This document shows positions 6,635 through 64,000 of a stretch of DNA of 64,000 nt, piece after piece. The position numbers and the translations under genes are program-made. The notes beneath the pieces are model-generated. The model did not search any database. It was not told the origin of the DNA and worked only from the letters and a program-made list of their open reading frames with translations. Each line of letters begins with the position of its first letter. The stretch's first letter is position 1. The DNA comes from a virus (lineage: Duplodnaviria > Heunggongvirae > Uroviricota > Caudoviricetes): the IMG/VR virus record IMGVR_UViG_2675903433_000022; one strand, 5' to 3'.

Positions 6635-6652
6635 TTTTGAGGTGAAAACGCT

Positions 6653-14046: not shown

Positions 14047-14421
14047 ATGGGACTTGATATCTATATCGAGACACAGCCTAAAAACGATCTGAATAACGAG
14101 GCATCCAGAAAGCAGGTTGCTTACTTCCGTAAGTTCAATGCGCTCGTTGGGTGGATGGAGCGCAACGTAGGTGAAGTCGAAAATTGTGAGCTTTTAGAAT
14201 TAACGATGAATGACATTTGTTTTCTGAAGGCTCATTTGATGCACATAAACGAAAGTAATTGCGAAGAGTACTTGCCTACCCGGGAAGGCTTTTTCTTCGG
14301 CAGTCAGGAGTACGATGAAGGTTACTGGCATGACGTGGACAAGCTGAAAAAACTTGTGGAAGACCTGATCAGGAACCACGACTTTCACAATAACAGACTG
14401 ACGTTCTGCGCCTGGTGGTAA
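14047..14421 (+). CDS. Hypothetical protein
   Basis: ATG with AAGGAA RBS; track start 14005 lies in the promoter-like motif. Confidence 0.55.
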   Translation: MGLDIYIETQPKNDLNNEASRKQVAYFRKFNALVGWMERNVGEVENCELLELTMNDICFLKAHLMHINESNCEEYLPTREGFFFGSQEYDEGYWHDVDKLKKLVEDLIRNHDFHNNRLTFCAWW

Positions 14422-18143: not shown

Positions 18144-18147
18144 GTCA

Positions 18148-21242: not shown

Positions 21243-21910
21243 TGACCAAAAAGTTTGAAATCGTATATCGCGACCCGGCAGATCTTATTCCCTATGAGAT
21301 GAATGCCAAAAAGCATGATGAACAGCAGATCCGAGATCTGGCCGCAGCCATTAAAAAGCGCGGATTTGACCAGCCAATTACGGTCGATAAGAACGACGTA
21401 ATTATTACTGGCCACGGCCGCCGTGAGGCTGCAATTTTTGCTGGACTTGAGCGCGTGCCGGTTATTGTTCGCGATGATCTCAGTGATGACGAGGTTCGTG
21501 CGAAGCGCCTTGAAGATAACCGACTTGCCAGCATTGATTACGATGCAATTAAGCTACAGAAAGAGCTTGAGTCGCTTGTTCTGGACGATATCGAGGTTTT
21601 CGGCTTTGAAGAGCGTGAGTTGAATGTTCTCGTTGGCAGTATGACAGAAGAAATGGACACCGACTCGCTAGTTATCGATCTTGGCGAAGAAACTAAACGA
21701 CAGAAGGATGAACACACCGAGATCAGTCGCGAAGTTGCAGCGGAAGAAGTACGTGTTGTCGACGTATTGGGCTTTAAAACGCTTCCTGCTGGCTCTGCCA
21801 TTGTTGTTGGTGATTTGCTTGCCCACATGGAAGAAATGACGGGAGAGAGCGGGGTAGACGCATTTGTGGCATATGCGGAGAAGATCTCTTCCGGGGAGAT
21901 GGCTGCATGA
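21242..21910 (+). CDS. ParB/Srx-fold (ParB N-terminal domain) protein 2
   Basis: LIPYEMNAKKH...GHGRREAA motifs; ATG overlaps upstream stop (TAATG); RBS AAGGAG. Confidence 0.7.
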   Translation: MTKKFEIVYRDPADLIPYEMNAKKHDEQQIRDLAAAIKKRGFDQPITVDKNDVIITGHGRREAAIFAGLERVPVIVRDDLSDDEVRAKRLEDNRLASIDYDAIKLQKELESLVLDDIEVFGFEERELNVLVGSMTEEMDTDSLVIDLGEETKRQKDEHTEISREVAAEEVRVVDVLGFKTLPAGSAIVVGDLLAHMEEMTGESGVDAFVAYAEKISSGEMAA

Positions 21911-23758: not shown

Positions 23759-23815
23759 ACCTGCTTCTGTATATATAAATAATAAGTAACTTATTAAATA
23801 TATACGGAAGCAGGC
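23759..23815. repeat. ~56-bp imperfect palindrome, copy 1 (cctgcttctg-core-cggaagcagg)
   Basis: Second copy at 56808-56866 has an identical 36-bp core with the flanking stems reverse-complemented. Confidence 0.6.
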
Positions 23816-30703: not shown

Positions 30704-31536
30704 TGGCGCAGATCGACTCGTATCGTAGCGGTGAAGCTGTTTCTCTTTCATTTGCCTTCAACGTGCTGGATATCGAATCTGCCACCTACACAGTAAAGGA
30801 CAGCACCGGGGCTATTCTCGTTGATGGCGAGCCGCTAGAAATTACCAGCGGTCAAATGTCGATTCCGGTTGTCGTGTCGGCTGAATATAACCAGCTCTCT
30901 GAGAAAGAGCGAGATCTGCGGTACGTCATTGTGAAGGCTGTTGCATCGGGCCTGACGCATGAAGAGCGTCAAATGTATGTTCTGCTGAATAGTTTTGAAC
31001 TGTCGATACCAGAACAGTCGTTTGCAACTGTCGCTGATGCTCAAATGCAGGCGATCGATATGCTGAATGGGGACACTTTGCTGTCGGATGGTGAAGGCTT
31101 AATGCGCAAGCGTCTCATTGAGGCTACCAGACGAATTAAAACTTTACCGTTCTCAATCCGCAAAATTCTACGTATCGACTTTGACCGATACGATCGCCCT
31201 CAAAATATGCTGAATGTGTATGACATTCCGTGGGGAGCAGATGGAGCGTACCGGCATGATTTAGTCGATTGGGAAAAGATGACGCAGGAGAAGTTTGAAG
31301 AGTTCCCTGACTACTTCAAAGAAGCGTTGATGCTTGCCGTTGTCAACGAAGCGTGTGAGATCGCAAATGGCAATGATGTTGCCGCAGCACGAGAAGATGG
31401 CATTTTGTCAGAGTCCATCGGTGAAACAACCAACATGTACCGTACCGGCAAAGCTGCAAACGTGCATGTGGCTCGCAGTACCTGGCGCTTGCTGGTCAGT
31501 TACATCAACAACCGTATGATTGTTCGCCGTGCGTAA
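30703..31536 (+). CDS. Hypothetical head/connector protein
   Basis: 277 aa; TAATG coupling. Confidence 0.5.
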   Translation: MAQIDSYRSGEAVSLSFAFNVLDIESATYTVKDSTGAILVDGEPLEITSGQMSIPVVVSAEYNQLSEKERDLRYVIVKAVASGLTHEERQMYVLLNSFELSIPEQSFATVADAQMQAIDMLNGDTLLSDGEGLMRKRLIEATRRIKTLPFSIRKILRIDFDRYDRPQNMLNVYDIPWGADGAYRHDLVDWEKMTQEKFEEFPDYFKEALMLAVVNEACEIANGNDVAAAREDGILSESIGETTNMYRTGKAANVHVARSTWRLLVSYINNRMIVRRA

Positions 31537-51628: not shown

Positions 51629-51859
51629 ATGAAAAGATTATTTCTAACAATAGCTGTTGTTCTCTCTCTTACTGGCTGTCAGAAATTGCCGACACCCATA
51701 TGTTATGGTGAGGCTATCATTGGTGGACAGGAGACAGTCATACCTATATATGCTGTTAAAAAGGTTAACGGCTATACCTTATACAAAGCGGGTAGCATCT
51801 ATAACTGGCGATGGGTTGGAGTAGGTGCTTTCTCATCAGTGCGTTGCAATGCTGAATGA
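51629..51859 (+). CDS. Small lipoprotein, candidate superinfection-exclusion (Llp/Cor-like position)
   Basis: 76 aa with signal peptide and lipobox LTGC; located directly downstream of the fibre genes. Confidence 0.6.
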   Translation: MKRLFLTIAVVLSLTGCQKLPTPICYGEAIIGGQETVIPIYAVKKVNGYTLYKAGSIYNWRWVGVGAFSSVRCNAE

Positions 51860-51879
51860 TAAGTAAGTACATACCTACA
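51859..51879. promoter_or_regulatory. GATAAGTAAGTACATACCTAC, late-region motif copy
   Basis: Intergenic before the lysis cassette. Confidence 0.4.
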
Positions 51880-51940
51880 ACAAGAAGGTGAAATGTGATA
51901 TAAATCCGCCATCCCGATTTGACTTTTCATGGAGGAAAAC

Positions 51941-52264
51941 ATGTCGAACGAGATGGCGGGCGTTACAACAGAGCAAGTTGAGCGTATTGCCGCGATCGTT
52001 GCTCGGGAGGTTGTTGGCAAATTAGGCAAAGAGCTACGTGAAGAAATTGGCCAGGAGGTCAATGATCAGCTGAAAACCTACTTTGGTGATATGACCCCGG
52101 CGCAACATAGTATTCAACACTCCAACCTGGACAAGCTCCTTAACCGGTTAGATTCCATCTCCAGTGGGTTCTTTGGCGGCATTGTTTCTAAAATAACGTC
52201 GTTCATTATTACCGCACTGCTTTTGGGGTTAGCCGCGTATGGCGTAAAAAATGGACTGCAATAA
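51941..52264 (+). CDS. Membrane protein with single C-terminal TM segment (possible holin-like protein)
   Basis: GGAGG RBS 5 nt before ATG; C-terminal ITSFIITALLLGLAAYGV. Confidence 0.45.
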   Translation: MSNEMAGVTTEQVERIAAIVAREVVGKLGKELREEIGQEVNDQLKTYFGDMTPAQHSIQHSNLDKLLNRLDSISSGFFGGIVSKITSFIITALLLGLAAYGVKNGLQ

Positions 52265-52277
52265 CAGGAGATCAAGG

Positions 52278-52970
52278 ATGAAGACTCCGAGAGGCATTCG
52301 TAATAATAACCCCGGTAATCTTGATAAAGGATCACCGTGGCAAGGTCTGGTTGCGAATCCAGACGAACCGCGTTTTTGCACGTTTAAAGACCCTGTTTGG
52401 GGGATTCGTGCGCTGGCGGTGACTCTAATTACCTACCACGACAAACGTCGCGCAAAAGACGGCTCAAGTATCGATACCATTCGTGAAGTTATTGAACGTT
52501 GGGCACCGCCGAATGAAAACAACACTGACGCCTACATTAATGAGGTGTCTAAAGCCGTTGGTGTAACCGCAGACATGATCATCGATCTGCATGATTACGA
52601 CATCCTTCGACCTTTGGTTGAGGCAATCATTCGCCACGAGAATGGCCGGGGTCCGCTAAAAACGCTGAACACCTGGTATGCGGCAGAAGTTATTGAGGAA
52701 GGTCTGCGTCGAGCTGGCGTTGTTAAGCCGGTGAAAACCGTGAAGGCTGTTCCTGTAACTAAAGAAACAGCAGGCGCAACTGTTACAGCAGGTATTGGTC
52801 TGGCGCAACTGGCCGATGTTATGCCGCAGGTTTCCGCTGCTATGGATAAGGCACAAGGCCATATCTCTAGCGGGGATACAGTACGCATCATCTTCGGTAT
52901 TGCCACTATTGTTGTGGCCGGATTCATTGCCTGGTCGCAGGTAAGAAAACACCAGAAAGGGATGGTCTAA
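52278..52970 (+). CDS. Lysis-module protein, possible cell-wall hydrolase with C-terminal membrane anchor
   Basis: AGGAG RBS; hydrophobic C-terminus IIFGIATIVVAGFIAW; position between putative holin and spanins. Confidence 0.5.
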   Translation: MKTPRGIRNNNPGNLDKGSPWQGLVANPDEPRFCTFKDPVWGIRALAVTLITYHDKRRAKDGSSIDTIREVIERWAPPNENNTDAYINEVSKAVGVTADMIIDLHDYDILRPLVEAIIRHENGRGPLKTLNTWYAAEVIEEGLRRAGVVKPVKTVKAVPVTKETAGATVTAGIGLAQLADVMPQVSAAMDKAQGHISSGDTVRIIFGIATIVVAGFIAWSQVRKHQKGMV

Positions 52971-52971
52971 T

Positions 52972-53223
52972 ATGCTAGGCAGCCTGATGACAAAGCTAAA
53001 AGTTGCTTTGATTACGCTGGCTGCCGTTCTTTTCGTTCTGGTCGGCGCTTACACGATGGGCGGGAATGCAGCACGACGAGCAATGGAAGAGAAGGCAAAA
53101 CAGGAAGACAGAAAACGACTTCAAAGCACAGTGGACGTCAAAAATGAAACACTTGATGAGTTACGGCGCAAGGATGCTTCTTCTGTTCATCATGAGTTGC
53201 ACAATAAGTGGTTGCGTGATTAA
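52972..53223 (+). CDS. i-spanin (Rz-like)
   Basis: 83 aa, N-terminal TM helix then charged coiled region. Confidence 0.6.
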   Translation: MLGSLMTKLKVALITLAAVLFVLVGAYTMGGNAARRAMEEKAKQEDRKRLQSTVDVKNETLDELRRKDASSVHHELHNKWLRD

Positions 53224-53374
53224 GCCTCAACCCGCTGGTGTGCTTTTCTGCGATGCGGCTACACCGCTATACATCAGCCGTGATGATCTCATGACCGAAG
53301 AGACTGAAAGAGAGGTGCTTTTTCACAATATGATAGGGGAGCGATTGTGTGGATGGGGCAGAAAAGTACCATAA
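53144..53374 (+). CDS. o-spanin (Rz1-like lipoprotein), overlapping the i-spanin gene in the +1 frame
   Basis: MKHLMSYGARMLLLFIMSCTISGC signal with lipobox; start lies inside the Rz-like gene. Confidence 0.55.
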   Translation: MKHLMSYGARMLLLFIMSCTISGCVIKPQPAGVLFCDAATPLYISRDDLMTEETEREVLFHNMIGERLCGWGRKVP

Positions 53375-53551
53375 CAGAAGAGGAGTTTTCTAACATAAAA
53401 TTTGCATATTATTAGAGCACAAGGTAGATTTGGCACATGGATGTCAAGTAAATCATCCCTTGCATTAATGCTGCGACGCATACTCGTAGCCTCTAAACCC
53501 TGACAAGGGTCGCCGCTATGACATTAAGTTAATACCGGCTAAGGTGGACAC

Positions 53552-53935
53552 ATGCTGAACGAAAAACGTTCTATACAAACAATTCGCGATTGCACGAGTG
53601 TTATCGCAACTCATGTGCTGAATAAGCGCAAACTTGAGGTGCGTAAACTTAACAACGATGCGACTGCGCCAAAAGACACTCGCTTCATCGTAACTTTCAA
53701 AGACGATGTTGAGAATGCTGGTGCCAGTGTAAAACCGTTGGCTGAAGCGATTTTCCTGAACGATCGTGTTCGTTTCATTGTGAAGCCAGCAAAACAATAC
53801 CCTGAATTAGCACGGTTTAGTGACCAATTCTCTGAAATTATTGAGAGTGCAATTCGCCGCTTTCTTAATACTCATGGTAGCATTGTCAGCAATACAACTG
53901 CTGATGGTACTGCTCTAAGATGGCACCTACACTAG
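53552..53935 (+). CDS. Hypothetical protein
   Basis: 127 aa; RBS ctaaggtggac. Confidence 0.5.
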   Translation: MLNEKRSIQTIRDCTSVIATHVLNKRKLEVRKLNNDATAPKDTRFIVTFKDDVENAGASVKPLAEAIFLNDRVRFIVKPAKQYPELARFSDQFSEIIESAIRRFLNTHGSIVSNTTADGTALRWHLH

Positions 53936-54672
53936 AACGCACATACTCTAAAAATCTTTATGAGTTTCCTCACCGTGGGGAAACTCGCGTTTCACGTTTT
54001 GGCTACCTCATCAACGAAGCATCGCTTTTCAAAATATCTGAAATAACCATTATCGAGCCTGATGATGATATCTGTCTGTATATCCTGATGGAGAAAGTTG
54101 GAGCACGAGATCAGGGTGAACTGATGGACTTCATTCTGGACAGAGGCGAAGATGGAATGTCTGATTCGGACATTATTCAAGCAATTCTGCGTTCCGACAT
54201 GCTCGATCAGAGCAGAAACACGATAGCAGGCAGAATTGCCTTGCGTGAATACACATTCATCGAGGATGGGGTAGAGATTGACTGCTATCAGATTGCAGGT
54301 GTTGAAACAGAAAGAGCAATAAGGCAAAGGGGACTGTGCAACCTCACGTATCGCTTCCTCCTTCATTGGTACGAACATCTTGTCTGTGATTACAATCAGA
54401 CCATTCCTGGCGCAAAAATCTGGGCCGGTCCATTAATGCGAACAGGTGATGTAAGAATTTACAACGCAAAAACTGAGACGTTCGAGGATGTGTTAGGCGA
54501 ATATGGGATGGGAAAAGAAACCGGCTTTTTGCCGTGGAACAGAGGATTGTTACTTGATCCAGAATTAAGCTCTTGGTTTCCAAATAAGGTGCAAGTTAAC
54601 GTTGAGAAATTTATCGTACTTATCATCTCCCGCAAAACAAGAACCCCAGTTGGTTTATATCTAAAAGATTAA
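53920..54672 (+). CDS. Hypothetical protein
   Basis: 250 aa, overlaps upstream gene by 16 nt. Confidence 0.55.
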   Translation: MAPTLERTYSKNLYEFPHRGETRVSRFGYLINEASLFKISEITIIEPDDDICLYILMEKVGARDQGELMDFILDRGEDGMSDSDIIQAILRSDMLDQSRNTIAGRIALREYTFIEDGVEIDCYQIAGVETERAIRQRGLCNLTYRFLLHWYEHLVCDYNQTIPGAKIWAGPLMRTGDVRIYNAKTETFEDVLGEYGMGKETGFLPWNRGLLLDPELSSWFPNKVQVNVEKFIVLIISRKTRTPVGLYLKD

Positions 54673-54677
54673 CAATT

Positions 54678-54700
54678 AGGCGACTTCTGTCGCCTTTTTT
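54678..54700 (+). terminator. Rho-independent terminator
   Basis: aggcgac-ttct-gtcgcct hairpin plus TTTTTT. Confidence 0.65.
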
Positions 54701-54800
54701 GTTAACAGCCATTGATTCTCGCCTAAAAATTCTAAGGCAGCACCTACCATTTAACCTTTACACAGCAGCCGTAGGCATTTAGGCTATATCACATATAAGA

Positions 54801-54813
54801 AAACAAGTTGTTT
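54801..54813. promoter_or_regulatory. AAACAAgTTGTTT palindrome upstream of parA-like gene
   Basis: Perfect copy 36 nt before the ATG. Confidence 0.45.
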
Positions 54814-54848
54814 CAGACAATAATAATAGACGCAAAGGGAACTCTCCA

Positions 54849-55517
54849 ATGACCAAGATCTTTGTGGTTGGCGGCACAAAGGGCGGGCCTGGCAAATCCA
54901 CTGTTGCCCAGCAAATTGCCGTTTGCCTGAAAGTCAAAAAGAAGAAGAAGGTTTATATCACTGATATAGATATTCAGCGCACGACAACAAGCTGGTGTGA
55001 AGACCGTCGACAGAACGAAGACCTTGAGCTGATTCCTTTTGCCTACGTTCAGGATGACATCATTAAGCACCTAAAATCGCTTCAGGGTAGAGCTGAGTTT
55101 GTAGTGGTAGATGCTGGTGGCTTTGACTCCGAAATTCAGCGACAAGCGATGCTGATGGCCGACGTTATCATTATCCCGCTGCGTCCTAAGCGTCGTGATT
55201 TGAAATCTCTGCGTGACATCGATCCTATTATCGACAATGTTCGTAATGTAAACGATAAAGTGAAGGTCCGCGCGGTCATGAACCAGTGCCCGGCTTTGCC
55301 ATCACAAGTGTCTCGCATTCTGGCGGCTAAAGAGATTGTCGAGACGTTTGGCATCGAGTCTGCGCCAGTCAATCTATATAACCGCAACGTCTACGATGAT
55401 GCGGAAGAGTCTGGTCGTTCTATCTTCGAAATGACCGGTAGCGAGCGCGACAAAAAGGCTGAAGCCGAGTTTGAAGAATTTGTAGATTATCTGTTGAGTC
55501 TGGAGGAAGAAGAATAA
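54849..55517 (+). CDS. ParA/ParF-family partition ATPase
   Basis: Deviant Walker A KIFVVGGTKGGPGKST; 222 aa (small type Ib ParA size). Confidence 0.85.
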   Translation: MTKIFVVGGTKGGPGKSTVAQQIAVCLKVKKKKKVYITDIDIQRTTTSWCEDRRQNEDLELIPFAYVQDDIIKHLKSLQGRAEFVVVDAGGFDSEIQRQAMLMADVIIIPLRPKRRDLKSLRDIDPIIDNVRNVNDKVKVRAVMNQCPALPSQVSRILAAKEIVETFGIESAPVNLYNRNVYDDAEESGRSIFEMTGSERDKKAEAEFEEFVDYLLSLEEEE

Positions 55518-55876
55518 TGTCCATGAAAATGGGTGACCTAGCAAAGCGCAAAGAGCCTGATGCACCGGCTAAGAACACAACTCCTTTGCGCCAACCAGTC
55601 AGACCACAGGGACGCCCGACTCGTGGCAAAGAGAAAATTAAGAGCCGCACGATGTCACTGGAGGACGAATACTTCGAACTGCTGGAGATGATGAAGTTCA
55701 TCCCTCGTTTCGAGAAATTCACCCGTTCAGACGTGATTCGCGCAGCCATTTTCCATCTGGCAGAGAAGTCACCGCAGGAAATCGAGGACATCGTGAAACT
55801 TAACGAGGCGATCACAGCTGCCGATGTCACGATGCGTACCGATGAAATCAAACGAGAGTTGATGAAAAAAGGTTAA
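55517..55876 (+). CDS. ParG-like small partition / centromere-binding protein (putative RHH)
   Basis: 119 aa, basic disordered N-terminus, TAATG-coupled to ParA-like gene. Confidence 0.55.
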   Translation: MSMKMGDLAKRKEPDAPAKNTTPLRQPVRPQGRPTRGKEKIKSRTMSLEDEYFELLEMMKFIPRFEKFTRSDVIRAAIFHLAEKSPQEIEDIVKLNEAITAADVTMRTDEIKRELMKKG

Positions 55877-55928
55877 AAATCATGCATTGGCGCAATGTAC
55901 GCGCCAATGCATAACTACAGTGTCAGCT

Positions 55929-56696
55929 TTATGCCGCGCTAACACTATGTTCAGTCCTAACCACCCCAACCTTCACAAAAGGGCTACCGTAGCTTGGTGG
56001 CTTCTTGATTAATTTGCCTACATACAGTTTTCTAATATGCTCATCGGCTATTCTGCCAACAAATTCATAACGTTTTGTGTCGGGGCCAAGAGCTATATCC
56101 CTTGTAAAGTACTGCTGAGAACCGGCTTTGACCCAGCATTCAATCCGATAAACTTCCATTATCAGCCCACCATATGTAGCGTAGGCATATTTGAGATTCT
56201 CGTCTCTTGGAACCTTTGCCCATACGCCACGCGTAGCTTCATATAATGCCAGAGCGGACATTCCTGACTTGTAGGTGCTGTTTAGCAGGAAGGCAAGACC
56301 GGCGTGCTCAGGAGCAATTTCAGTTTCCTCTTGCAGCACTAAGTGATGGTAGGCGTCCAGTGATATTCTGCCCATCATGGAACCACTTCCTCGTACCTTA
56401 TTCGTAAGCTCTCCGACCCCCATAAGGTCGATGCATGTCGCCTCAACAAGTTTGGCTGTGGTTTCATCCATACCATGACGAAGTATATCTATGCCTAATT
56501 TTTTATTAGCCAAAAGTTCTTTGATCCGCATGGATTTGGGAGAGTCATCGGGATACTTGATGTGATCGAGACAACGAGTCGATTTGCCTTTTCCTATGTA
56601 AAACGGTCTTTTCATCTTGTCTTCTGTATCATAGAGACAGTAAACATAGTATTTAGCCTTATCCAATGATCTCGCGTATACCGATAAATCGTCCAT
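55929..56696 (-). CDS. GIY-YIG nuclease-domain protein
   Basis: N-terminal YVYCLYD...PFYIGKGKSTRCLDHIK matches the GIY-(10-11)-YIG pattern; lone minus-strand gene. Confidence 0.65.
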   Translation of the reverse strand: MDDLSVYARSLDKAKYYVYCLYDTEDKMKRPFYIGKGKSTRCLDHIKYPDDSPKSMRIKELLANKKLGIDILRHGMDETTAKLVEATCIDLMGVGELTNKVRGSGSMMGRISLDAYHHLVLQEETEIAPEHAGLAFLLNSTYKSGMSALALYEATRGVWAKVPRDENLKYAYATYGGLIMEVYRIECWVKAGSQQYFTRDIALGPDTKRYEFVGRIADEHIRKLYVGKLIKKPPSYGSPFVKVGVVRTEHSVSAA

Positions 56697-56807
56697 TATT
56701 GCATCTCTTAGCTACTGACTAATGCGTTCTATTTTACACATAAGTTTTTAATCAATTTAACAGGCTCAAAGTGTAGAGCTTCTGGGCGTCTAAGACGACA
56801 AGTTATG

Positions 56808-56866
56808 CCTGCTTCCGTATATATAAATAATAAGTAACTTATTAAATATATACAGAAGCAGGTCTT
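56808..56866. repeat. ~56-bp imperfect palindrome, copy 2
   Basis: Core tatatataaataataagtaacttattaaatatatac identical to copy 1; stems reverse-complemented. Confidence 0.6.
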
Positions 56867-56945
56867 TTAAAAGACACCACCAGAACAACTCCCTTCCGTT
56901 TCCACTTCCAAAAACTGCCACCAGTCGCTATCATCCGCTCATTGT

Positions 56946-56967
56946 GATAAGTAAGTAACTACCTACC
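56946..56967. promoter_or_regulatory. GATAAGTAAGTAACTACCTACC, late-type motif copy
   Basis: Immediately upstream of the 56979 gene. Confidence 0.4.
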
Positions 56968-56978
56968 AGGTGAGCCAC

Positions 56979-57719
56979 ATGAGCCAAATCTTTTTCGATA
57001 CCATCGACAACGACCAGTACGACTTCATGACAGAGTGGAATACCGCTGTTATGGACAAGTGGGTCGCTGAAAACATTGGTTTGTCGCGCTGTAAAGACGA
57101 GGCTGAACTCTTCGAGACGAAGTGGTTTGATTATCGCGACATGCATCCTCTCATGGCCACCTGTCTTTTTACGGAGGCATACAAACGTCAGTACTCAAAT
57201 ATCATGCTGACGCACGGTCGCGAACACTTTGAAACAGCTCCGTTCACCACCGGGTTAAAACGCCTGCCTTATCAGGAGTTGTCGACTGCCAATAAAACGT
57301 CGCTATGGAAAGCACGCCAGTTTGCTGACCGCTATTGCTGCTCATACGACTACTTTATCTCCACCGTTCTTTCCGCAGCTGCACGACGACTGTGGGACAA
57401 GCTGCCGCGTCCGCAGCATTTGTGGCAGCCAGAACTGATTGAGATATTCGAAGATAAATTAGCCAGACGCGCAACAACCCGTCTGGATGACTCTCTGGTT
57501 AGCTTTAAGCATATGGGAGACATGCAGTTCAACCCGATTCAGGAAAGCTATTTTGAGTGGATTCTTGAGCGTTTACGCGCCATCCCCCGCAGCAAGCGCA
57601 TACGCGCAATTTTCTCCGCTATCTGGCTAATGGAAATCGTTCCAGAGCGCCTTATTTCCGCCCACTTTCCAGAAGAACTGGAAGAAGCACGGCGGTTTAT
57701 TGATCCCCTATCTAATTAA
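56979..57719 (+). CDS. Hypothetical replication-module protein
   Basis: ATG with AGGTGA RBS; upstream of the helicase gene. Confidence 0.55.
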   Translation: MSQIFFDTIDNDQYDFMTEWNTAVMDKWVAENIGLSRCKDEAELFETKWFDYRDMHPLMATCLFTEAYKRQYSNIMLTHGREHFETAPFTTGLKRLPYQELSTANKTSLWKARQFADRYCCSYDYFISTVLSAAARRLWDKLPRPQHLWQPELIEIFEDKLARRATTRLDDSLVSFKHMGDMQFNPIQESYFEWILERLRAIPRSKRIRAIFSAIWLMEIVPERLISAHFPEELEEARRFIDPLSN

Positions 57720-57730
57720 CTAATACTAGA

Positions 57731-57743
57731 AAACAATTTGTTT
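57731..57743. promoter_or_regulatory. AAACAAtTTGTTT palindrome upstream of helicase gene
   Basis: Perfect copy 20 nt before the ATG. Confidence 0.45.
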
Positions 57744-57762
57744 AAAAAACAAAGGAAAGCAC

Positions 57763-59103
57763 ATGACCGAACTTTGCCATACAGGACGCGGGCTGTCCGA
57801 AGAGTTTGATGAAGATTTCCAGAACAGACTGACGGCATATTTTTGTCGTGATCACGAGTTTCTTACTCGTGCGGGAGATCTGGTTGTGCCTAGCCAATTT
57901 GCCAATGCGGCCAATGCCATATTGGTTAATATGGTTTCGGGCTATTACCGTATGTACAAGAGCGCGCCCTCTTCATCTGCAATTCTGGATATGCTTAAGC
58001 GTGCGAAACGCGATAAGACTATCCGTGAGGAACTATTCGCCGATGTTGTTGCTGCGTTTAAGCGCATCCTTGCAGAAAAATTGTCCGATACCTCGTACAT
58101 GGTTGACCAGGTATCAACCTTCGCAAAAAGCGTAGCGTTTGATGATGCTCTGATTAAGGCTGCTGAACTGAAAGAGAAAGGCGACTTTCAGGGGGCGATG
58201 GCAATCATGGCCAAGGTTCAGCAGATTGGATCGAACGAAGCGACCGGAATCTATGACTACTACACCTCCGCAAGTGAGCGATTGAAAGCGCGTGAATATG
58301 AGGCTTCAGAGGAGTATGTGCCAAACAGCATTACAACTGGACTCCCTCTGCTCGATAGGTTGCTGTACCAAAAAGGCTGGGCGAAGCGTGAAATGGTGCT
58401 CTTCATGGGGTTCGCTAAATCCGGTAAATCGACCGCAATGGGTGAATTTTCCATAAACGCAACGCTTGCTGGCTACAATGTTCTGTATCTCTCGCTGGAG
58501 GTTCACACCACCATTTTATCCGACCGTTTTGATGCAAGATTGTCGGAGACAGAAATGTCCAAGCTGGTGGAACGGCGCGATGAGGTTCATCGTAAGTTGG
58601 CAGAGTTGGGAGCCACGAAGGGGATTGGTAGTTTGTGGGTGGTTGAGCGTCCGTCAGGAAGTATGTCACCGGCAGATCTGGACCGTATGCTTAACAGCAT
58701 GAAAGCCAACGGCATGGTGCCTGACATGGTTGTTGTCGACTACGCAGATTTGATGCGTGCCAGTTATGACCTTCGTGATGATCGCGCCAACATTCGTAGT
58801 ATCTACACCGATTTGCGCGCTCTTTATGACAAGCATAACGTTGCTGGTATCACGGCATCGCAGACAAACCGTGAAGGTGGCGCGTCAGAAGTTGCCACAA
58901 TGATGCACGCTGCCGACAACATCGAAAAAGTACGTATTGCTGACCTGGTAATAACGATCAACAAAACCGAAGAAGAAGAAGCGAAAGGAGAGGCTCGTCT
59001 CTACTTTGCTGGTTCACGTAACCAGCAGGGAGGGATCAGCATTCGCGTTAAACAAAACCTCGAACAAATGCGCTTCATTGAGCGAATCTTAGACGTTACC
59101 TAA
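57763..59103 (+). CDS. DnaB-like replicative helicase (RecA-fold)
   Basis: Walker A GFAKSGKST and DnaB C-terminal-domain-like motifs; adjacent to the primase gene. Confidence 0.7.
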   Translation: MTELCHTGRGLSEEFDEDFQNRLTAYFCRDHEFLTRAGDLVVPSQFANAANAILVNMVSGYYRMYKSAPSSSAILDMLKRAKRDKTIREELFADVVAAFKRILAEKLSDTSYMVDQVSTFAKSVAFDDALIKAAELKEKGDFQGAMAIMAKVQQIGSNEATGIYDYYTSASERLKAREYEASEEYVPNSITTGLPLLDRLLYQKGWAKREMVLFMGFAKSGKSTAMGEFSINATLAGYNVLYLSLEVHTTILSDRFDARLSETEMSKLVERRDEVHRKLAELGATKGIGSLWVVERPSGSMSPADLDRMLNSMKANGMVPDMVVVDYADLMRASYDLRDDRANIRSIYTDLRALYDKHNVAGITASQTNREGGASEVATMMHAADNIEKVRIADLVITINKTEEEEAKGEARLYFAGSRNQQGGISIRVKQNLEQMRFIERILDVT

Positions 59104-59184
59104 AAAATAAGCGTGGAGAACACCTCCACGCTTGATTCATTGGTGAAACAACTTTTCTTTTGCCAAACCACAAAAGAAAAACAC

Positions 59185-60366
59185 ATGAGCCTTTATGTTA
59201 TATCAACATTTAGGTTGGTCACAATATTGCCTGTTAAAAGTGGAATTATCGTGAGCGAGCTGAAAGAGCTAATTACCGAATTAGATTTTGAACAATGGTT
59301 GGACACTGAAGGTATCGTTTATCGACGTGGAGGCGTGAGTGCTCGCGGTCGTGAAGTGAATATCAAGGAGTGTCCGGTATGCGGCAGCTCCAACTGGAAG
59401 GTATATTTCAATCTGACCAGTGGTGTCGGCAAATGCTTCGCTGGTGATCATCCCGAAGAGATTCAGTTTAATAAGCTGGTCTTCCTCAAGCACTACAGCG
59501 GTAAATCACGACGACAGTTCGAGGAATATGTGCAGAACGCTCTTCTTTCCCAGGGGTGGGCACCAAAGAAAGAAGAGATAGTGCTTGCAAGCACAGTCGA
59601 GTTAGAGGGACCACTTGCACTCCCTCGTCATTACGAACTTCCTATAGATGGCCGTCTTCCAGACTATCTGGTTGAACGAAACATATCGCCTGAAATGGCA
59701 AAGTATTTTGACCTACGATACTGCGTCGAAGGCAAGCACGCTTATGTAGATCCGTATACAGATCAGGTTAAAGGACAGATATTCGATATGCGAATACTGA
59801 TACCGGTTTACGATCTGGATGGGGTAATGAAGACATTTCAGGGACGAGACATTACCGGTACAGCAGAACGCCGCTACCTCTTTCCTATGCAGCTTCCAGC
59901 TTCAGGTAAGTTTCTCTACAACGGCCATAATGCGGTCGGCAAACAGACTGTAGTTGTCTGTGAGGGGGCATTCGATGTTATGGGGGTTAAACGAGCTATT
60001 TTTGATGAAGAAACATTACGTGATTACGTGGAACCAATAGGAACGTTCGGGATGCATCTATCTGGTAACACCACTCAGGATGCAGAAGATCAGTTAGGCG
60101 CGTTCCTGACGCTCAAGGCGCGTGGGTTACGTAATGTGATCATGATGTGGGATAGTGAAAAGCAAGCTATACGCAACACTATGGCCGCAGCCAGGCGACT
60201 GACCAGTATCGGTCTTAATGTCAAAGTGGCGTGTTTGGGCGAGGAAGGACTCGACCCGGGCGATGCAACGCCAGAGCAAATCATCAAAGCCTATTATCGG
60301 GCAAAACCGTATACCAAGCAGTTGGAGTTACAAAGCAAGGTTTTGGGCATTAAGGCTCTATCATAA
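59185..60366 (+). CDS. DNA primase (zinc-ribbon plus TOPRIM)
   Basis: CPVCGSSNW...CFAGDH zinc ribbon; VVVCEGAFDVMG TOPRIM; start uncertain (ATG 59185 or GTG 59251); track start 59113 lies in a hairpin. Confidence 0.7.
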   Translation: MSLYVISTFRLVTILPVKSGIIVSELKELITELDFEQWLDTEGIVYRRGGVSARGREVNIKECPVCGSSNWKVYFNLTSGVGKCFAGDHPEEIQFNKLVFLKHYSGKSRRQFEEYVQNALLSQGWAPKKEEIVLASTVELEGPLALPRHYELPIDGRLPDYLVERNISPEMAKYFDLRYCVEGKHAYVDPYTDQVKGQIFDMRILIPVYDLDGVMKTFQGRDITGTAERRYLFPMQLPASGKFLYNGHNAVGKQTVVVCEGAFDVMGVKRAIFDEETLRDYVEPIGTFGMHLSGNTTQDAEDQLGAFLTLKARGLRNVIMMWDSEKQAIRNTMAAARRLTSIGLNVKVACLGEEGLDPGDATPEQIIKAYYRAKPYTKQLELQSKVLGIKALS

Positions 60367-60379
60367 CAATCACCTTTAA

Positions 60380-60401
60380 AATAAGTAGATGATTACTTAT
60401 C
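60380..60401. promoter_or_regulatory. AATAAGTAGATGATTACTTATC, late-type motif copy
   Basis: Intergenic after the primase gene. Confidence 0.4.
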
Positions 60402-60441
60402 TTTCTGTGAGAATACTTTCATCTGTTAGCTAGGAGTTGGT

Positions 60442-61224
60442 ATGAAAGACGAAATTCAGAAATTAGCCTGCGACATCATTGATAAAACTGGTTTAGAAAT
60501 CAGCGAGAGCAATCGGCTAGACATCATTGAAAAAGCCGTAAAAACAGCAATGGATCATATCGCCACTCGTTTGGTCGAGATCCCGCTACCGGGGCTACCT
60601 TATCTGAAGGTTAAGTTACACGTATGGGGTGAACCTTCTTGTGCACGGCGTTCTGCATTAGTTGTTTTTATTAGCAAAGAAAACCCGATCAGTCTTAAAG
60701 TGCAGGTTGGGGCATGGATGGATGGCAAAGTGATCTACACAAATACCGTTTTTTGTGCGTCAAATGACAGTATTATTGAAGAGGCTATTCAAGAATCACT
60801 TCTAACTATGCATAGCTTAGTTTTGCTGGAAGACAAGCAAAACTACGAAGAGTACTTACGGTCGATAAAAGGTGAGAGAACATTGTCACTTAAAGCCGAT
60901 TTCGTTACCCCGACAAACCTGTTGGAAGTCTTGCTTAATAAAGGGGCTAATGATGCCGTAAATGTAATCAGAGAGAGTGAGTATGCGTCTCTTTGCGACA
61001 TGTGCAAAAGCCAGTTGGATCTGGTGCATATCGTTATTGATGCTGGGAAGGCATGTGATGGCGTAATGGCGGAATTTGCTGGGAAGATGGTCAGGATTGC
61101 TAACGAATTACCGATGATAGAGCAAGAGGCTAAATCATACGCCACCAATCATGTCACAGAGCTTCTTGTCCCCTATCGCTTAGAAAGCAATCAGCGCAAG
61201 ATGATTAGCTGGGGAAGTTGGTAA
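60442..61224 (+). CDS. Hypothetical protein
   Basis: 260 aa; TAGGAG RBS. Confidence 0.55.
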   Translation: MKDEIQKLACDIIDKTGLEISESNRLDIIEKAVKTAMDHIATRLVEIPLPGLPYLKVKLHVWGEPSCARRSALVVFISKENPISLKVQVGAWMDGKVIYTNTVFCASNDSIIEEAIQESLLTMHSLVLLEDKQNYEEYLRSIKGERTLSLKADFVTPTNLLEVLLNKGANDAVNVIRESEYASLCDMCKSQLDLVHIVIDAGKACDGVMAEFAGKMVRIANELPMIEQEAKSYATNHVTELLVPYRLESNQRKMISWGSW

Positions 61225-61281
61225 TCTCTCCGCGCGTCGTTTTTTTTACGCAAACAATGATAGGTAAGTACAAGATTATTT

Positions 61282-61764
61282 ATGGCGATAGTTGTGAAAG
61301 CTGATTTGTCAAAAATCCCCTCTATTTCAGGAAATAATGGTTATTCACTTCGTTGTGAGGAAGTAAAGATAAACGGTGAGTCGGCATATTGCAGTTACTC
61401 CGTTTGCCAGCACACCATTCTTGCCTTCAAAGAAAGCCGTCTTCCTCGAACTTCTTTCCAGTCGTGCGCAACCGCTATTAAAGCAGGCAAATGCAAGGCG
61501 TTAAAAATGATGGTTGAAGAGATTCGTAAAGGAGAATCTCTGTATTTCGAAGATATGACCGCACTCATTAAGGAGGTTGAAGAACGGAATAAACAAGCCA
61601 GAACTATAAAACGAAAACGTGACAGTGTAACGATTAATAGCATGGTTAAGAAGAGCGCCACATCACAAACAGCGATCACTGACGTGTATGCGGCGTTGCT
61701 TGAAGAAACAACAAAAGAAACACATGAGCAAATCGATCAACATATGGAGGCAAAACAACAATGA
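61282..61764 (+). CDS. Hypothetical protein
   Basis: 160 aa; ATGA-coupled to the ligase gene. Confidence 0.5.
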   Translation: MAIVVKADLSKIPSISGNNGYSLRCEEVKINGESAYCSYSVCQHTILAFKESRLPRTSFQSCATAIKAGKCKALKMMVEEIRKGESLYFEDMTALIKEVEERNKQARTIKRKRDSVTINSMVKKSATSQTAITDVYAALLEETTKETHEQIDQHMEAKQQ

Positions 61765-63083
61765 AAAAGTTGATCGCACTTAAGCATAAGCTGGACGAAA
61801 TGAAAGCTATGGGAACCAATGCAAAAAAAGAGGCATTGGCCAACATGGATGACTTTGAACAAAGCATGGTTTCATTGATGCTCAACCCTTTCATCCGTTT
61901 TGGGGTAAAGAAATACAAAGTGGCAGAGCCGCTTAGTGAGTCCGTCCTAAGTGACGAAAAAGCCATTGATGTACTGAATAAGCTGGCCTCTCGCGAGCTG
62001 ACGGGGAGCGCAGCAATAGTTGCTGTTGAGTCTATCGTGGCGTCAATGTGCGCCGATGGGCAGGACGTCTTCCGTCGTTTCCTCTTAAAAGATCCGAAAG
62101 CTGGCGTTGGGATTAGCCTATGTAACAAGGTTTTTGAAAATCCCATTCCGAAATTCGAGGTGCAGCTGGCGTCACCGTATAAAGAAAAAGGCGACAAATA
62201 CCCCTTCAAGCCAAATCCTAAAGCCAAATGGCCGATGATTGGCAGCCTTAAGCTCGATGGTTTGCGAGTAATTTGTGAGGTTATTGTTGACGAGGAAGAG
62301 GTTAACTTCCTTTCTCGTACTGGTAATCCAATCACGTCTCTCGATCACCTAAAGCCAGCCATGCTCGAATTAGGCAAACTTTCAGGCCACAAACACATCT
62401 TCTTCGATGGTGAAGGAACAGCCGGTTCATTTAACCAGTCCATATCTGCATTGCGCAAAAAGAACGTGCAGGCAATTGGCGCTATTTATCATGTTTTCGA
62501 CTTCTTCCTACCGGAATGGCGAGCACAGGCTAAATCCAAAGAGTATGCAAAGACAGGTATGAAGCTGAAAGAGCGCCTGGCTATGCTGGTGGCGTTGTTC
62601 AAAAACGATCGCAGTGAAGGCTACACACAAGACATTCACCTGCATCCGTTCTATATCATCCATAGCCACGAAGACTTCATCGAACGCTTCATGAAACGCC
62701 TGGACGATAACGAAGAAGGGGAGATGGGCAAAGATCCGAACTCTGTTTACGAGTTTAAACGTACCCGCAGCTGGTGGAAGTTAAAAGACGAAGATTCAGA
62801 AGATGGTGAAATTATCGACTTTGAGCCGGGCGACCCGGACTCTGGTTTTGCCAACACACTTGGAAAAATTGTTATTCGTCTTGAAAACGGCGTCATCGTT
62901 CGTGCGAGCGGCATTAAGCATAAATATCTGGACGAGATCTGGAACAACAAAGAGAAGTACCGTGGTCGTATTGTCGAGGTTCATTGTCACGAGAAAACAC
63001 CGGACGGCAGCTTACGCCACCCACGACTGAAATGGCCGCGTTGCTTACGCGATACAGAAGATCGAATCGGAGATAAAGAATGA
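61761..63083 (+). CDS. ATP-dependent DNA ligase
   Basis: Motif I KLDGLR, motif III FFDGEG, C-terminal DPNSVYEFKRTRSWWKLK resembling T7-type ligase motifs. Confidence 0.85.
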   Translation: MKKLIALKHKLDEMKAMGTNAKKEALANMDDFEQSMVSLMLNPFIRFGVKKYKVAEPLSESVLSDEKAIDVLNKLASRELTGSAAIVAVESIVASMCADGQDVFRRFLLKDPKAGVGISLCNKVFENPIPKFEVQLASPYKEKGDKYPFKPNPKAKWPMIGSLKLDGLRVICEVIVDEEEVNFLSRTGNPITSLDHLKPAMLELGKLSGHKHIFFDGEGTAGSFNQSISALRKKNVQAIGAIYHVFDFFLPEWRAQAKSKEYAKTGMKLKERLAMLVALFKNDRSEGYTQDIHLHPFYIIHSHEDFIERFMKRLDDNEEGEMGKDPNSVYEFKRTRSWWKLKDEDSEDGEIIDFEPGDPDSGFANTLGKIVIRLENGVIVRASGIKHKYLDEIWNNKEKYRGRIVEVHCHEKTPDGSLRHPRLKWPRCLRDTEDRIGDKE

Positions 63084-63259
63084 TGCTCGGCTGGATGATT
63101 GCATTTTTAGCGGTTGGTTTTTTAATCGGTATTGTGGTGATGTCCAGTTGCATCAATGACTACATTAAAAGCGGTGTTATAGAACGACGCGGTCGTATTT
63201 ATCGCATTGTAGAAATAACCCACACAGTGAAGGAGATTAAGGATGATCGTATTAAGTAA
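63080..63259 (+). CDS. Small membrane protein (59 aa)
   Basis: ATG overlapping the ligase stop; hydrophobic MIAFLAVGFLIGIVVM; paralogous to the 63455 ORF; translated by hand. Confidence 0.3.
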   Translation: MMLGWMIAFLAVGFLIGIVVMSSCINDYIKSGVIERRGRIYRIVEITHTVKEIKDDRIK

Positions 63260-63458
63260 GCGGGAGAAGGAAACGCTTCATGAAATCAGTAAGTGGCCGG
63301 AGTTCCCTGAGTACTGGAAGCCTAAAACGCGAGCTAAGTTAGAGCGTTTAGGGTTGGTTGCAAACGTTTCTGAAACGAAGTGTTCGGCCAACTACCAGTT
63401 AACTGATAAAGGGAAAGTATTGCTACAGCAATTAGTAGAATCAGGAGTGTTAAAATGA
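63243..63458 (+). CDS. Hypothetical protein
   Basis: 71 aa; AGGAG RBS 7 nt upstream. Confidence 0.5.
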   Translation: MIVLSKREKETLHEISKWPEFPEYWKPKTRAKLERLGLVANVSETKCSANYQLTDKGKVLLQQLVESGVLK

Positions 63459-63607
63459 TTCCATACATCTCATTAGCTTTTATGGGTGGCTTCCTTATTG
63501 GCTTCGGCATCTGTCGTGATTTAATTAAGCAGGAACTTAAAACCAAAACACTGTGCATCGGAAAGCGTGTGTATCGGGTAGTTCATGAAACAAAGGTTAG
63601 AAAATGA
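63455..63607 (+). CDS. Small membrane protein (50 aa)
   Basis: AGGAG RBS; hydrophobic LAFMGGFLIGFGIC; ATGA coupling on both sides. Confidence 0.3.
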   Translation: MIPYISLAFMGGFLIGFGICRDLIKQELKTKTLCIGKRVYRVVHETKVRK

Positions 63608-63894
63608 TCAATTTAACTTCTTGGAACTGGTGGTTGGCCACCTATTTCTTAGCGGCCGGAGTCGCATTCGCCTTTTACGTAGGTCAGTTAGTCGTAAAAC
63701 TGTTGCTGATTAAATTTGCTAGTCATAAACGTATCGATGATGGTCTGTGGCGTCTTGGCACCTTGGTGGAAACTCGCTACGGGCAACTTAAGGAGAACGA
63801 AACCATTACTATCCAAGCGAAACGATTCACTGCCACCATCACAAGAACACCTAGTCGTAGAGTGGCCTTGATCAAAAAAGTTACAACCGAATAA
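63604..63894 (+). CDS. Membrane protein
   Basis: 96 aa, N-terminal TM WWLATYFLAAGVAFAFYV. Confidence 0.5.
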   Translation: MINLTSWNWWLATYFLAAGVAFAFYVGQLVVKLLLIKFASHKRIDDGLWRLGTLVETRYGQLKENETITIQAKRFTATITRTPSRRVALIKKVTTE

Positions 63895-64000
63895 AAATAC
63901 AATGATAAGTATTTACTTACTTATCATTTATGTATAAGATGACTTTGTTTTCGTTGAGACGCGACTGTTTGAACTTAAATACAAGTGCAAACGAAGAAGT

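Follow-up and report, generated by a model that had tools for sequence, protein, structure and literature searches.

The region at positions 56979-63083 of a 64,000-nucleotide stretch of phage DNA (the stretch as a whole is called the window here) encodes a helicase, a primase and a ligase, and it raises the question of how the element to which it belongs is copied. An earlier sequence-only reading had pointed out that neither a DNA polymerase nor an integrase appears in the 64 kb, and had offered two alternatives: either the polymerase lies outside the window, in a genome larger than 64 kb, or the element relies on the host polymerase in a plasmid-like mode. The analysis presented here makes it highly probable that the region is the first part of the lytic replication operon of a phage-plasmid of about 110 kb, with the polymerase encoded off-window and with two modes of replication. 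The features at this locus are:

56808-56862, no strand assigned: 55-bp AT-rich near-perfect palindrome with arms CCTGCTTCYGTATATAT, the left border of the conserved replication operon
56979-57719, plus strand: first ORF of the operon, 246 aa from the ATG at 56979, a start as annotated in relatives (mechanical ORF start GTG 56970)
57763-59103, plus strand: replicative hexameric helicase of the DnaB family, nearest to T4 gp41 (Pfam, PHROG, PDB)
59251-60366, plus strand: probable primase of the DnaG/T4 gp61 type with zinc motif and TOPRIM (mechanical start 59113; PHROG, motifs)
60442-61224, plus strand: 260-aa ORF (PHROG 4248), from a narrow family with only 9 homologous clusters
61282-61764, plus strand: 160-aa ORF (PHROG 5055), overlapping the ligase start by 4 nt
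61761-63083, plus strand: ATP-dependent DNA ligase of the T4 type, with N-terminal DNA-binding, adenylation and OB domains (Pfam, PHROG, PDB)
63080-63894, plus strand: four small ORFs (59, 71, 50 and 96 aa) that extend the operon, also called in relatives and in an identical contig

The gene calls and coordinates of the three enzymes hold, with catalytic motifs found and reading frames intact. The helicase belongs to the Pfam family DnaB_C (PF03796; E 3.6e-13, 49.9 bits against a cut-off of 27) and matches PHROG 19 with an E-value of 5.5e-88. It carries the Walker A motif GFAKSGKS at residues 216-223 as well as an MVVVDY motif, and it matches the PDB entries 8due/8dtp, a 475-aa 'DnaB-like replicative helicase' which we take to be T4 gp41 (E 5.5e-12 to 7e-12). 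The primase is very probably a member of the DnaG/gp61 type, as judged by its match to PHROG 47 'DNA primase' (E 3.7e-65), by the motifs CxxC-x17-CxxxxH, EGAFD and DSE, and by PDB matches to 5guj (the DnaG RNA-polymerase domain, E 6.9e-6) and to the primase in 8dvf/8gao (E 1.8e-3). The Pfam scores were narrowly below threshold for DNAG_N (25.4 bits, cut-off 26) and Toprim_2 (21.9, cut-off 22.1), and the Pfam scan gave no match to zf-CHC2. The most likely start of the gene is the GTG at 59251, giving 371 aa and matching the annotation in relatives; the mechanical start at 59113 falls within a hairpin at 59109-59133.

The ligase had been described as T7-type, and here the assignment has to be changed. 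The 440-aa protein is a member of DNA_ligase_A_M (PF01068; E 6.7e-13, 49.2 bits, cut-off 26.2), matches PHROG 114 with an E-value of 1.6e-123 and contains the motifs KLDG (with K164) and FDGE. Its full-length PDB matches are three-domain ligases, namely 6rau (2.2e-26), 6rar (about 2e-26) and T4 ligase 6dt1 (1.4e-24), and its residues 11-125 align with the DNA-binding domain of T4 ligase (5wfy, E 5.6e-6), whereas T7 ligase (1a0i) aligns to residues 307-394 only (E 3.8e-9). The protein does not have the two-domain build of T7 ligase; since an N-terminal DNA-binding domain is present, it is, on its predicted three-domain architecture, of the T4 type. The last base of its stop codon is 63083, and the last of the small ORFs that follow ends 106 nt short of the window end.

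As for the remaining ORFs, the family of the first one is well-folded and all-helical, with no match in PDB or BFVD; its place at the head of the operon makes it a candidate for a helicase loader or a lytic-origin protein. Neither the 260-aa nor the 160-aa ORF gave a Pfam match or a PDB match by sequence. The 260-aa ORF was considered as a hidden sliding clamp; no clamp-like trait was noticed in it, though the family, with only the 9 clusters, is too narrow and the AF2 model, mostly helices with a pLDDT of 56, was unusable. A scan for iterons or an origin across 55800-63300 gave, apart from the palindrome, only short two-copy chance repeats, and a scan for sigma-70 promoters returned fewer sites than shuffled controls.

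The absence of a polymerase and an integrase from the window was confirmed. Among 64 ORFs (all 68 of at least 120 aa, minus four that overlap other ORFs in antisense), Pfam found no integrase family and no polymerase of family A, B, C, X or Y or of the primase-polymerase kind, and tblastn of the DnaE and integrase of the related phage-plasmid Cyrano against the window gave a best E-value of 0.2. The UmuD-like gene, the sole polymerase-related gene of the window, was rejected as an in-window polymerase: it encodes an S24 peptidase accessory protein, not a catalytic subunit, and stands without UmuC. An 80-nt stretch private to the window had no exact match among genome or viral contigs, but the exact ligase protein led to the contig CYGC01000020.1 (GCA_001283185.1; 110,676 bp). 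This contig, 21 kb of which was read, shows 0 mismatches to the window over 12,240 nt (51761-64000); by arithmetic, the window would span its positions 32001-96000 and dnaE about 103,828-107,346. Past the window end it encodes a tyrosine recombinase (PF00589 integrase) after 2,161 nt and, after 7,828 nt, at window-equivalent position 71828, a 1172-aa DnaE-type Pol III alpha subunit with PHP, DNA_pol3_alpha, finger and HHH_6 domains, both of them 99% identical to their Cyrano counterparts. Three tRNAs, a glutaredoxin, the tyrosine recombinase, a CI-like repressor and CobT/MoxR-like genes lie between the window end and dnaE. This layout was matched in all eight other contigs and also in Cyrano, pAVS0968-B, the F6326-C1 plasmid and SSU5; dnaE itself is present in 781 plasmid records.

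The polymerase is thus missing because the window was cut 7.8 kb short of dnaE, and the first of the two alternatives, a polymerase outside the window in a genome larger than 64 kb, proved correct. The sequence-only reading had proposed to look for polymerase and integrase in the remainder of the contig, where both were found; its view that the matter was not refutable from this window was too pessimistic, as comparison with public sequences settles it. It should be underlined that failing to find a gene in a fixed stretch of 64 kb is uninformative here, since the replicon is 110 kb and the window stops where its DNA-metabolism half starts.

The identity of the whole element is also evident. 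With the replication region as a 6.3-kb query, Cyrano, CMS-2020a and 173 plasmid records covering at least 80% of the query came out at 98% nucleotide identity. Both window ends share 97-98.5% identity with Cyrano, CMS-2020a and more than 170 E. coli plasmids, and 80% with SSU5. These more than 170 plasmids are about 110 kb each, and the rest of the window also matches them. By genome-wide similarity, therefore, the element is a phage-plasmid of the SSU5/pHCM2 type of about 110 kb, a siphovirus persisting as a low-copy plasmid. The window contains a complete siphovirus packaging, head and tail module together with a plasmid partition system, consisting of ParA with a partner ORF and two ParB_N proteins:

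6653-7042: UmuD/HumD-like S24 peptidase (Pfam)
18920-20479, minus strand: UvsW-like DEAD/ResIII helicase (Pfam ResIII, DEAD, Helicase_C; Cyrano CYRAN_118 is annotated as UvsW helicase)
20544-21910: two ParB_N proteins (Pfam)
23760-23814, no strand assigned: second copy of the palindrome, identical to the 56808-56862 copy at 53 of 55 positions
23.9-50.7 kb: terminase, capsid, tail terminator, tape measure, tail L, K and J, and fibre (Pfam)
54849-55517, plus strand: ParA ATPase (Pfam MipZ/AAA_31/CbiA; PHROG 164 'ParA-like partition protein', 4.2e-51)
55517-55876, plus strand: 119-aa ParA partner, second gene of the partition operon 54849-55876

The partition operon is plasmid-mode hardware within the window, while the UvsW-like helicase is part of a T4-like recombination and replication set and is the sole further DNA-replication enzyme in the window. 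The rest of the set was seen in close relatives, where the dnaE-bearing half of the genome also encodes an epsilon-like exonuclease, a gp32-like SSB, UvsY, a RecA/UvsX-like protein, a 5'-3' exonuclease, SbcCD, RuvC, NrdAB, ThyX, DHFR and a Rep3-family RepA initiator. A Pfam check of the relatives' proteins confirmed DnaE, the integrase, gp32, the 5'-3' exonuclease and the Rep3_N initiator; in these relatives RepA (Rep3/IncFIB(pHCM2) type, with a Rep3_N domain) lies about 23 kb past the ligase, and it was not seen in the 21 kb read of CYGC01000020.1. Phage-plasmids of this type are common in Escherichia, Salmonella, Klebsiella and Yersinia and are already known biology, and helicase, primase, ligase, DnaE, integrase and RepA are already listed in annotated SSU5/pHCM2-like genomes. 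No experimental work on the replication enzymes of the SSU5 group was found in the literature; a preprint on a heteroresistance phage-plasmid was set aside as concerning a different family.

What is known of Cyrano bears directly on the second alternative. It exists as a plasmid, with 5.5 copies in each cell, yields virions and can be induced with ciprofloxacin (PMC9928086). RNA-seq of its lysogen gave normalised counts of 133 for RepA, 96 for the repressor, 89 for the homologue of the 119-aa ParA partner and 50 each for ParA and the integrase, with a median of 9.8, and counts of 21 for the helicase, 10.6 for the primase, 5.9 for the ligase, 10.1 for DnaE, 10.7 for the epsilon-exonuclease, 9.1 for gp32 and 7-8 for the terminase (PMC9928086 S1 Table). 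Helicase, primase, ligase and DnaE thus stand at about 0.6-2.2 times the prophage median. As a substitute for an encoded polymerase, the host-polymerase plasmid mode falls, the element encoding DnaE; as a description of the prophage state, that of a RepA/ParA plasmid with its replisome genes near the median, it probably stands. The choice between the two alternatives was a false dichotomy, since the element encodes its own polymerase and yet the plasmid mode probably fits the prophage state.

A two-mode mechanism is therefore likely, as judged by homology and by a single RNA-seq data set from a relative with 98% identity. In the prophage state a theta-type plasmid origin would be fired by RepA, the element would be copied by the host DnaB/DnaG/Pol III replisome, and ParA with its partner would take care of segregation. 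After induction, the phage helicase, primase, DnaE, SSB and ligase would amplify the genome for packaging, assisted by the T4-like recombination proteins.

Other explanations were weighed against this one. If no polymerase were encoded and host Pol III alone copied the element, as in an ordinary plasmid, the lack of any polymerase family among the 64 scanned window ORFs and the presence of ParA would both be accounted for; the DnaE on a contig identical over 12.2 kb, together with dnaE DNA at the equivalent position in each of the 13 further relatives and contigs inspected (with frameshifts in one degraded plasmid), makes this very improbable. We likewise see scarcely any chance that the cluster of helicase, primase and ligase genes, instead of being a working replication module, is a cassette for defence or repair or a degenerate remnant. 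The GIY-YIG nuclease gene and variable accessory genes on its flanks might suggest as much, as might the fact that three of the six main ORFs have no assigned function, but the reading frames are intact with catalytic motifs present, the E. coli elements and SSU5 share the gene order and, at 80% nucleotide identity in the replication operon, the sequence, and the cluster is collinear with the remaining genes of a complete T4-like set for replication and recombination; moreover, SSU5 forms plaques and Cyrano yields virions.

A further explanation concerns the plasmid state only. The phage helicase, primase and DnaE might drive replication there as well, RepA recruiting the element's own replisome so that it is largely host-autonomous at all times. 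The conservation of these genes across hundreds of plasmid records is consistent with such an arrangement, and the helicase, at about 2-fold over the prophage median in the Cyrano lysogen, leaves room for some role in plasmid replication. In contrast, primase, ligase, DnaE, epsilon-exonuclease and gp32 lie at the level of the silent structural genes, with RepA about 14-fold over the median. Rep3/IncFIB-type initiators classically load host DnaB, which also speaks against it, as does a circular 66.5-kb Shigella derivative that persists with its plasmid genes kept and with dnaE and primase disrupted by frameshifts, although these could be sequencing errors. We regard this explanation as unlikely and retain that of host-driven copying in the prophage state with a separate lytic replisome.

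The conserved 55-bp palindrome heads the replication operon and the terminase operon alike. The copy at 56808-56862 lies 108 nt upstream of the first ORF of the replication operon, and the second copy precedes the ATG of the small terminase gene, at 23931, by 117 nt; Cyrano has three copies. Matches to the palindrome arm numbered six, against 0.16 expected. The palindrome is conserved in all relatives, SSU5 included, and in relatives with a different upstream gene the homology starts at about this point. As RNA it would form a hairpin with a dG of -26.2 kcal/mol (z -7.3).

As a tentative extension, which we hold to be possible but rather doubtful as a whole, the lytic replisome may be a hybrid, combining a T4-style primosome and recombination apparatus (gp41-, gp61-, gp32- and UvsX/Y/W-like proteins and a T4-type ligase) with DnaE and its epsilon-like proofreader. 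The ORF at 56979-57719 would be the loader or lytic-origin protein, and the palindrome an operator or insulator, which, thrice repeated, would hold the replication and terminase operons silent in the plasmid state. Since the annotations of relatives showed neither a clamp nor a clamp loader, such a replisome would need the host beta clamp.

Among known systems the closest is Cyrano (pLF82 of E. coli LF82; OV696614 / NC_011917), which is 98% identical in nucleotides over 56900-63200 and has the same gene order, that is, an unassigned ORF, helicase, primase, two unassigned ORFs and ligase. Its structural, lysis and ParA modules also match, whereas a KacT/TacA toxin-antitoxin pair and a different gene replace the ORFs at 53552-54672 and the GIY-YIG nuclease gene, and the accessory genes and tail fibre differ. 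SSU5 (JQ965645 / NC_018843), from the SSU5_pHCM2 group of phage-plasmids (Pfeifer et al. 2021, PMC7969092), shares the replication operon at about 80% nucleotide identity, conserves ParA and the palindrome, and likewise has its DNA polymerase a few kb downstream of the ligase. In contrast to the window, an additional gene on the minus strand separates its primase from the 260-aa ORF, and its interval past the ligase is without the tyrosine recombinase and the adjacent repressor.

Among solved structures, the gp41 helicase, gp61 primase and gp30 ligase of T4 come out best or nearly so as relatives for the element's three enzymes, and the relatives of the element carry T4-like genes for a gp32-like SSB, UvsY, UvsW, a UvsX/RecA-like protein and a gp46/47-like SbcCD, but the sequences of the enzymes resemble those of T4 only remotely (the helicase at E 1e-12, the primase at 2e-3). 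The polymerases differ in kind, the element having a bacterial C-family DnaE with an epsilon-like exonuclease and T4 the B-family gp43, and no counterpart of the T4 gp45 clamp, the gp44/62 loader or a recognisable gp59 was found for the element. P1, the prototype phage-plasmid, is 92% identical to part of the window at 1987-7032, including the humD-like gene; it differs in having no replicative polymerase or primosome of its own, and the gene content of its replication module is unrelated. As a plasmid P1 relies on RepA and ParAB, and once induced it turns to a separate lytic replicon; it is to this division that the two-mode scheme proposed for the present element may, by analogy, be likened.

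The sequence-only reading reported neither a DNA polymerase nor an integrase in the window, and this was borne out when 64 of the 68 window ORFs of at least 120 aa (all except four that overlap in antisense) were scanned against Pfam, as no polymerase or recombinase families were found among them. Four proteins of the Escherichia phage-plasmid Cyrano, the closest annotated relative, served as tblastn queries against the window (DnaE, integrase, the gp32-like protein and RecA) and gave a best E of 0.2, and the 64 kb contains no tRNA genes. Contig CYGC01000020.1 (assembly GCA_001283185.1; 110,676 bp), found by an exact-protein match to the window ligase, shows 0 mismatches to window 51761-64000 over 12,240 nt, which makes it either the window's source or a copy identical to it, and carries the following features past the window end:

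+674 to +1,377 nt: tRNA-Asn, tRNA-Thr and tRNA-Ser
about +1.7 kb (13945-14190 in the compared region L022): glutaredoxin
+2,161 nt: PF00589 tyrosine recombinase
+3,259 nt: 128-aa divergent repressor
+4,208 nt: CobT-like protein
+6,412 nt: AAA_5 (MoxR-like) protein
+7,828 nt: 1172-aa protein with PHP, DNA_pol3_alpha, finger and HHH_6 domains

Both the polymerase and the integrase that were to be sought in the flanking sequence are thus on this contig, the former as a DnaE-type gene in a genome larger than 64 kb. Identity to the Cyrano counterparts is 99.2% for the recombinase (integrase), 98.8% for polymerase residues 1-418 (DnaE) and 100% for the repressor. The same gene order was seen in all eight further contigs carrying the window's last ORF, as well as in Cyrano, pAVS0968-B, the F6326-C1 plasmid and Salmonella phage SSU5, except that SSU5 lacks the recombinase-repressor pair; dnaE DNA is present in 781 plasmid records. 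When mapped on Cyrano, the window corresponds to the accessory third, the structural, lysis and partition third and no more than the initial 7 kb of the part for DNA metabolism. The 47 kb of Cyrano outside this equivalent encode DnaE, UvsY, a gp32-like SSB, a 5'-3' exonuclease, RecA/UvsX, RepA, SbcCD, RuvC, NrdAB, MazG, ThyX, PNK, DHFR, an epsilon-like exonuclease, a methyltransferase and RNase H, several of which were confirmed by Pfam scan. The dnaE gene past the window end and the mapping on Cyrano together show that the 'missing polymerase' is a window-edge artefact.

Cyrano DnaE (locus L001, 35509-39015) combines PHP, polymerase, finger and HHH domains; its final ~215 residues had no Pfam hit, and neither an OB nor a tau-binding region was detected in it. 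The annotations of relatives, Cyrano included, list no clamp or clamp loader, and DnaE presumably gains processivity through the host beta clamp.

Six co-directional ORFs of the replication operon lie at 56979-63083:

56970/56979-57719, +: first ORF, 249 or 246 aa; PHROG 2500, unknown function; no Pfam match
57763-59103, +: helicase, 446 aa; Pfam DnaB_C, E 3.6e-13; PHROG 19 'DnaB-like replicative helicase', E 5.5e-88
59113-60366, +: primase, mechanical ORF of 417 aa; PHROG 47 'DNA primase', E 3.7e-65
60442-61224, +: 260-aa ORF, PHROG of unknown function
61282-61764, +: 160-aa ORF, PHROG of unknown function
61761-63083, +: ligase, 440 aa; Pfam DNA_ligase_A_M, E 6.7e-13; PHROG 114, E 1.6e-123

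The helicase and ATP-dependent ligase assigned earlier are real, and the primase very probably so, as judged by these family matches and by catalytic motifs readable in the sequence, namely Walker A GFAKSGKS and MVVVDY in the helicase, CPVC-x17-CFAGDH, EGAFD and DSE in the primase, and KLDG (K164) and FDGE in the ligase; Pfam DNAG_N and Toprim_2 scored slightly below their respective cut-offs for the primase ORF. The nearest solved structure of the helicase is a 475-aa 'DnaB-like replicative helicase' (8dtp/8due, E 5.5e-12 to 7e-12), the T4 gp41 protein. The primase matched the DnaG RNA-polymerase domain 5guj (E 6.9e-6) and the 342-aa primase of 8dvf/8gao (E 1.8e-3), from the same T4 primosome entries as the helicase match. 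For the ligase, three-domain enzymes gave the matches (6rau/6rar, E ~2e-26; 6dt1, T4 DNA ligase, E 1.4e-24), its N-terminal 125 residues aligned to 5wfy, an N-terminal domain solved on its own (E 5.6e-6), and T7 ligase (1a0i) aligned to residues 307-394 only. The earlier 'T7-type' label does not hold; judged from these alignments, the ligase is T4-type.

Three starts come into question for the primase, GTG 59113, ATG 59185 and GTG 59251, with 371, 379 or 393 aa annotated in relatives; GTG 59251 (371 aa) is most likely. A hairpin (stem 59109-59133; region 59098-59144) begins 6 nt past the stop codon of the helicase, and the primase ORF's first in-frame start falls within it. The 260-aa ORF had too few homologues and its predicted model was unusable, and the 160-aa ORF had no Pfam or PDB match. 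The most distant homologues of the first ORF (loci L014-L018; ~30% identity, 333-339 aa) lie two genes downstream of a tyrosine recombinase, beside type I restriction-modification genes and not beside a helicase.

The element group combines plasmid-type hardware (a Rep3-family RepA, ParA and a ParA partner) with a phage replication set (T4-like primosome, ligase, SSB and recombination mediators) whose polymerase is a C-family DnaE of bacterial type, accompanied by an epsilon-like exonuclease. In E. coli LF82, Cyrano is carried as plasmid pLF82 at 5.5 copies per cell; it produces siphovirus particles, with ciprofloxacin as inducer (PMC9928086). Normalised RNA-seq counts for the LF82 lysogen (S1 Table of PMC9928086) are 133 for RepA, 96 for the repressor, 50, 89 and 55 for ParA, its partner and the next gene, and 50 for the integrase. 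The counts are 6.2 for the operon's first ORF, 21 for the helicase, 10.6 for the primase, 5.9 for the ligase, 10.1 for DnaE, 10.7 for the epsilon-like exonuclease, 9.1 for the gp32-like SSB and 7-8 for the terminase subunits, with a prophage median of 9.8 (PMC9928086). In the plasmid state the phage replisome genes are therefore at 0.6-2.2 times the median, near the silent structural genes.

Gene content and lysogen RNA-seq indicate that the element most likely works in two modes: in the plasmid state RepA would initiate replication and the host replisome would copy the element, and after induction the operon and DnaE would drive lytic amplification. The sequence-only reading had posed an off-window polymerase and a plasmid-like reliance on host polymerase as alternatives; with a RepA plasmid mode and a lytic phage set, both are partly true, at different life-cycle stages. 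The off-window polymerase would serve the lytic stage, and the host-polymerase mode probably describes the plasmid state but fails as an exclusive alternative. The circular Shigella sonnei plasmid CP022461.1 (locus L019; 66.5 kb) is a degraded derivative with most structural genes gone, in which helicase and ligase are intact and dnaE and primase are frameshifted; these frameshifts are either sequencing errors or a hint from nature that neither gene is needed to maintain the plasmid.

A 55-bp AT-rich near-perfect palindrome (56808-56862; arms CCTGCTTCYGTATATAT) precedes the first ORF of the operon by 108 nt and is conserved as far as SSU5; in relatives with a different upstream gene, homology starts at about this palindrome. 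A second copy (23760-23814; 53/55 positions identical) is found upstream of the gene for the small terminase subunit, at a distance of 117 nt, and a scan with the palindrome arm gave six matches where 0.16 were expected. The complete Cyrano genome contains three copies and no more (108342..17, 31159-31211 and 78084-78138), which split it into three blocks; one copy stands before terS, one before the replication operon, and one between a methyltransferase gene and CYRAN_80. The predicted RNA fold of the palindrome has -26.2 kcal/mol (z -7.3), TCTTTT follows the replication copy, and transcripts drop 9-fold across this copy in the Cyrano lysogen. The palindrome is an operon-boundary element, which could act as a terminator/insulator or as an operator.

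Two insertion hot spots flank or interrupt the module. Left of the palindrome, the window has a LEM-3-like GIY-YIG nuclease gene (55929-56696, -), a KAP NTPase stands in L006 and a DUF2971 protein in SSU5 (L012), and different genes are found in Cyrano (L001), L009, L010 and L011. In L006, L008, L009 and SSU5, the gap between primase and 260-aa ORF (60367-60441) is occupied by a minus-strand gene, whose product in L008 and L009 is a Sel1-repeat protein. Window 53357-54741, directly upstream of parA, is another variable slot; its ORFs 53552-53935 and 53920-54672 have no family match, and Cyrano has a KacT/TacA toxin-antitoxin pair in this position. A perfect 12-bp inverted repeat (55882-55912; ATGCATTGGCGC / GCGCCAATGCAT) between the convergent parA-partner and GIY-YIG genes is probably a bidirectional terminator.

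Elsewhere the window encodes DUF551, two ParB_N proteins, lysis-region ORFs, ParA and its partner, and the following:

6653-7042, +: UmuD/HumD-like S24 peptidase, accessory, without a UmuC partner in the window
7080-8180, -: ApbC/Mrp-like iron-sulfur carrier ATPase, a chromosome-type housekeeping gene
8209-10371, +: full-length methionyl-tRNA synthetase with tRNA-binding domain, likewise chromosome-type
17619-18221, -: accessory FljA-family protein (repressor of phase-1 flagellin; PF03614, E 2.5e-84), here on an Escherichia phage-plasmid
18920-20479, -: UvsW-like DEAD-box helicase (Pfam scan)
23.9-50.7 kb: complete siphovirus packaging, head and tail module

The Cyrano ApbC homologue (annotated MinD, CYRAN_99) is expressed 9-fold over background in the lysogen. 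Window 1987-7032 (humD region) is ~92% identical to phage P1, which at the sequence level shows that P1-like and SSU5-like phage-plasmids exchange modules.

The 6.3-kb replication region is 97.9-98.5% identical to Escherichia phage Cyrano and to phage CMS-2020a, with similar identity to 173 plasmid records covering at least 80% of the region (mostly E. coli, 105-117 kb), and 80% identical to SSU5; the window's first 22 kb and last 24 kb match the same elements. Cyrano/SSU5-like elements form the phage-plasmid group SSU5_pHCM2 (PMC7969092), in which RepA is assigned to the IncFIB type (bioRxiv 10.1101/2025.09.12.675607), and the element is a routine member of this known, already annotated group.
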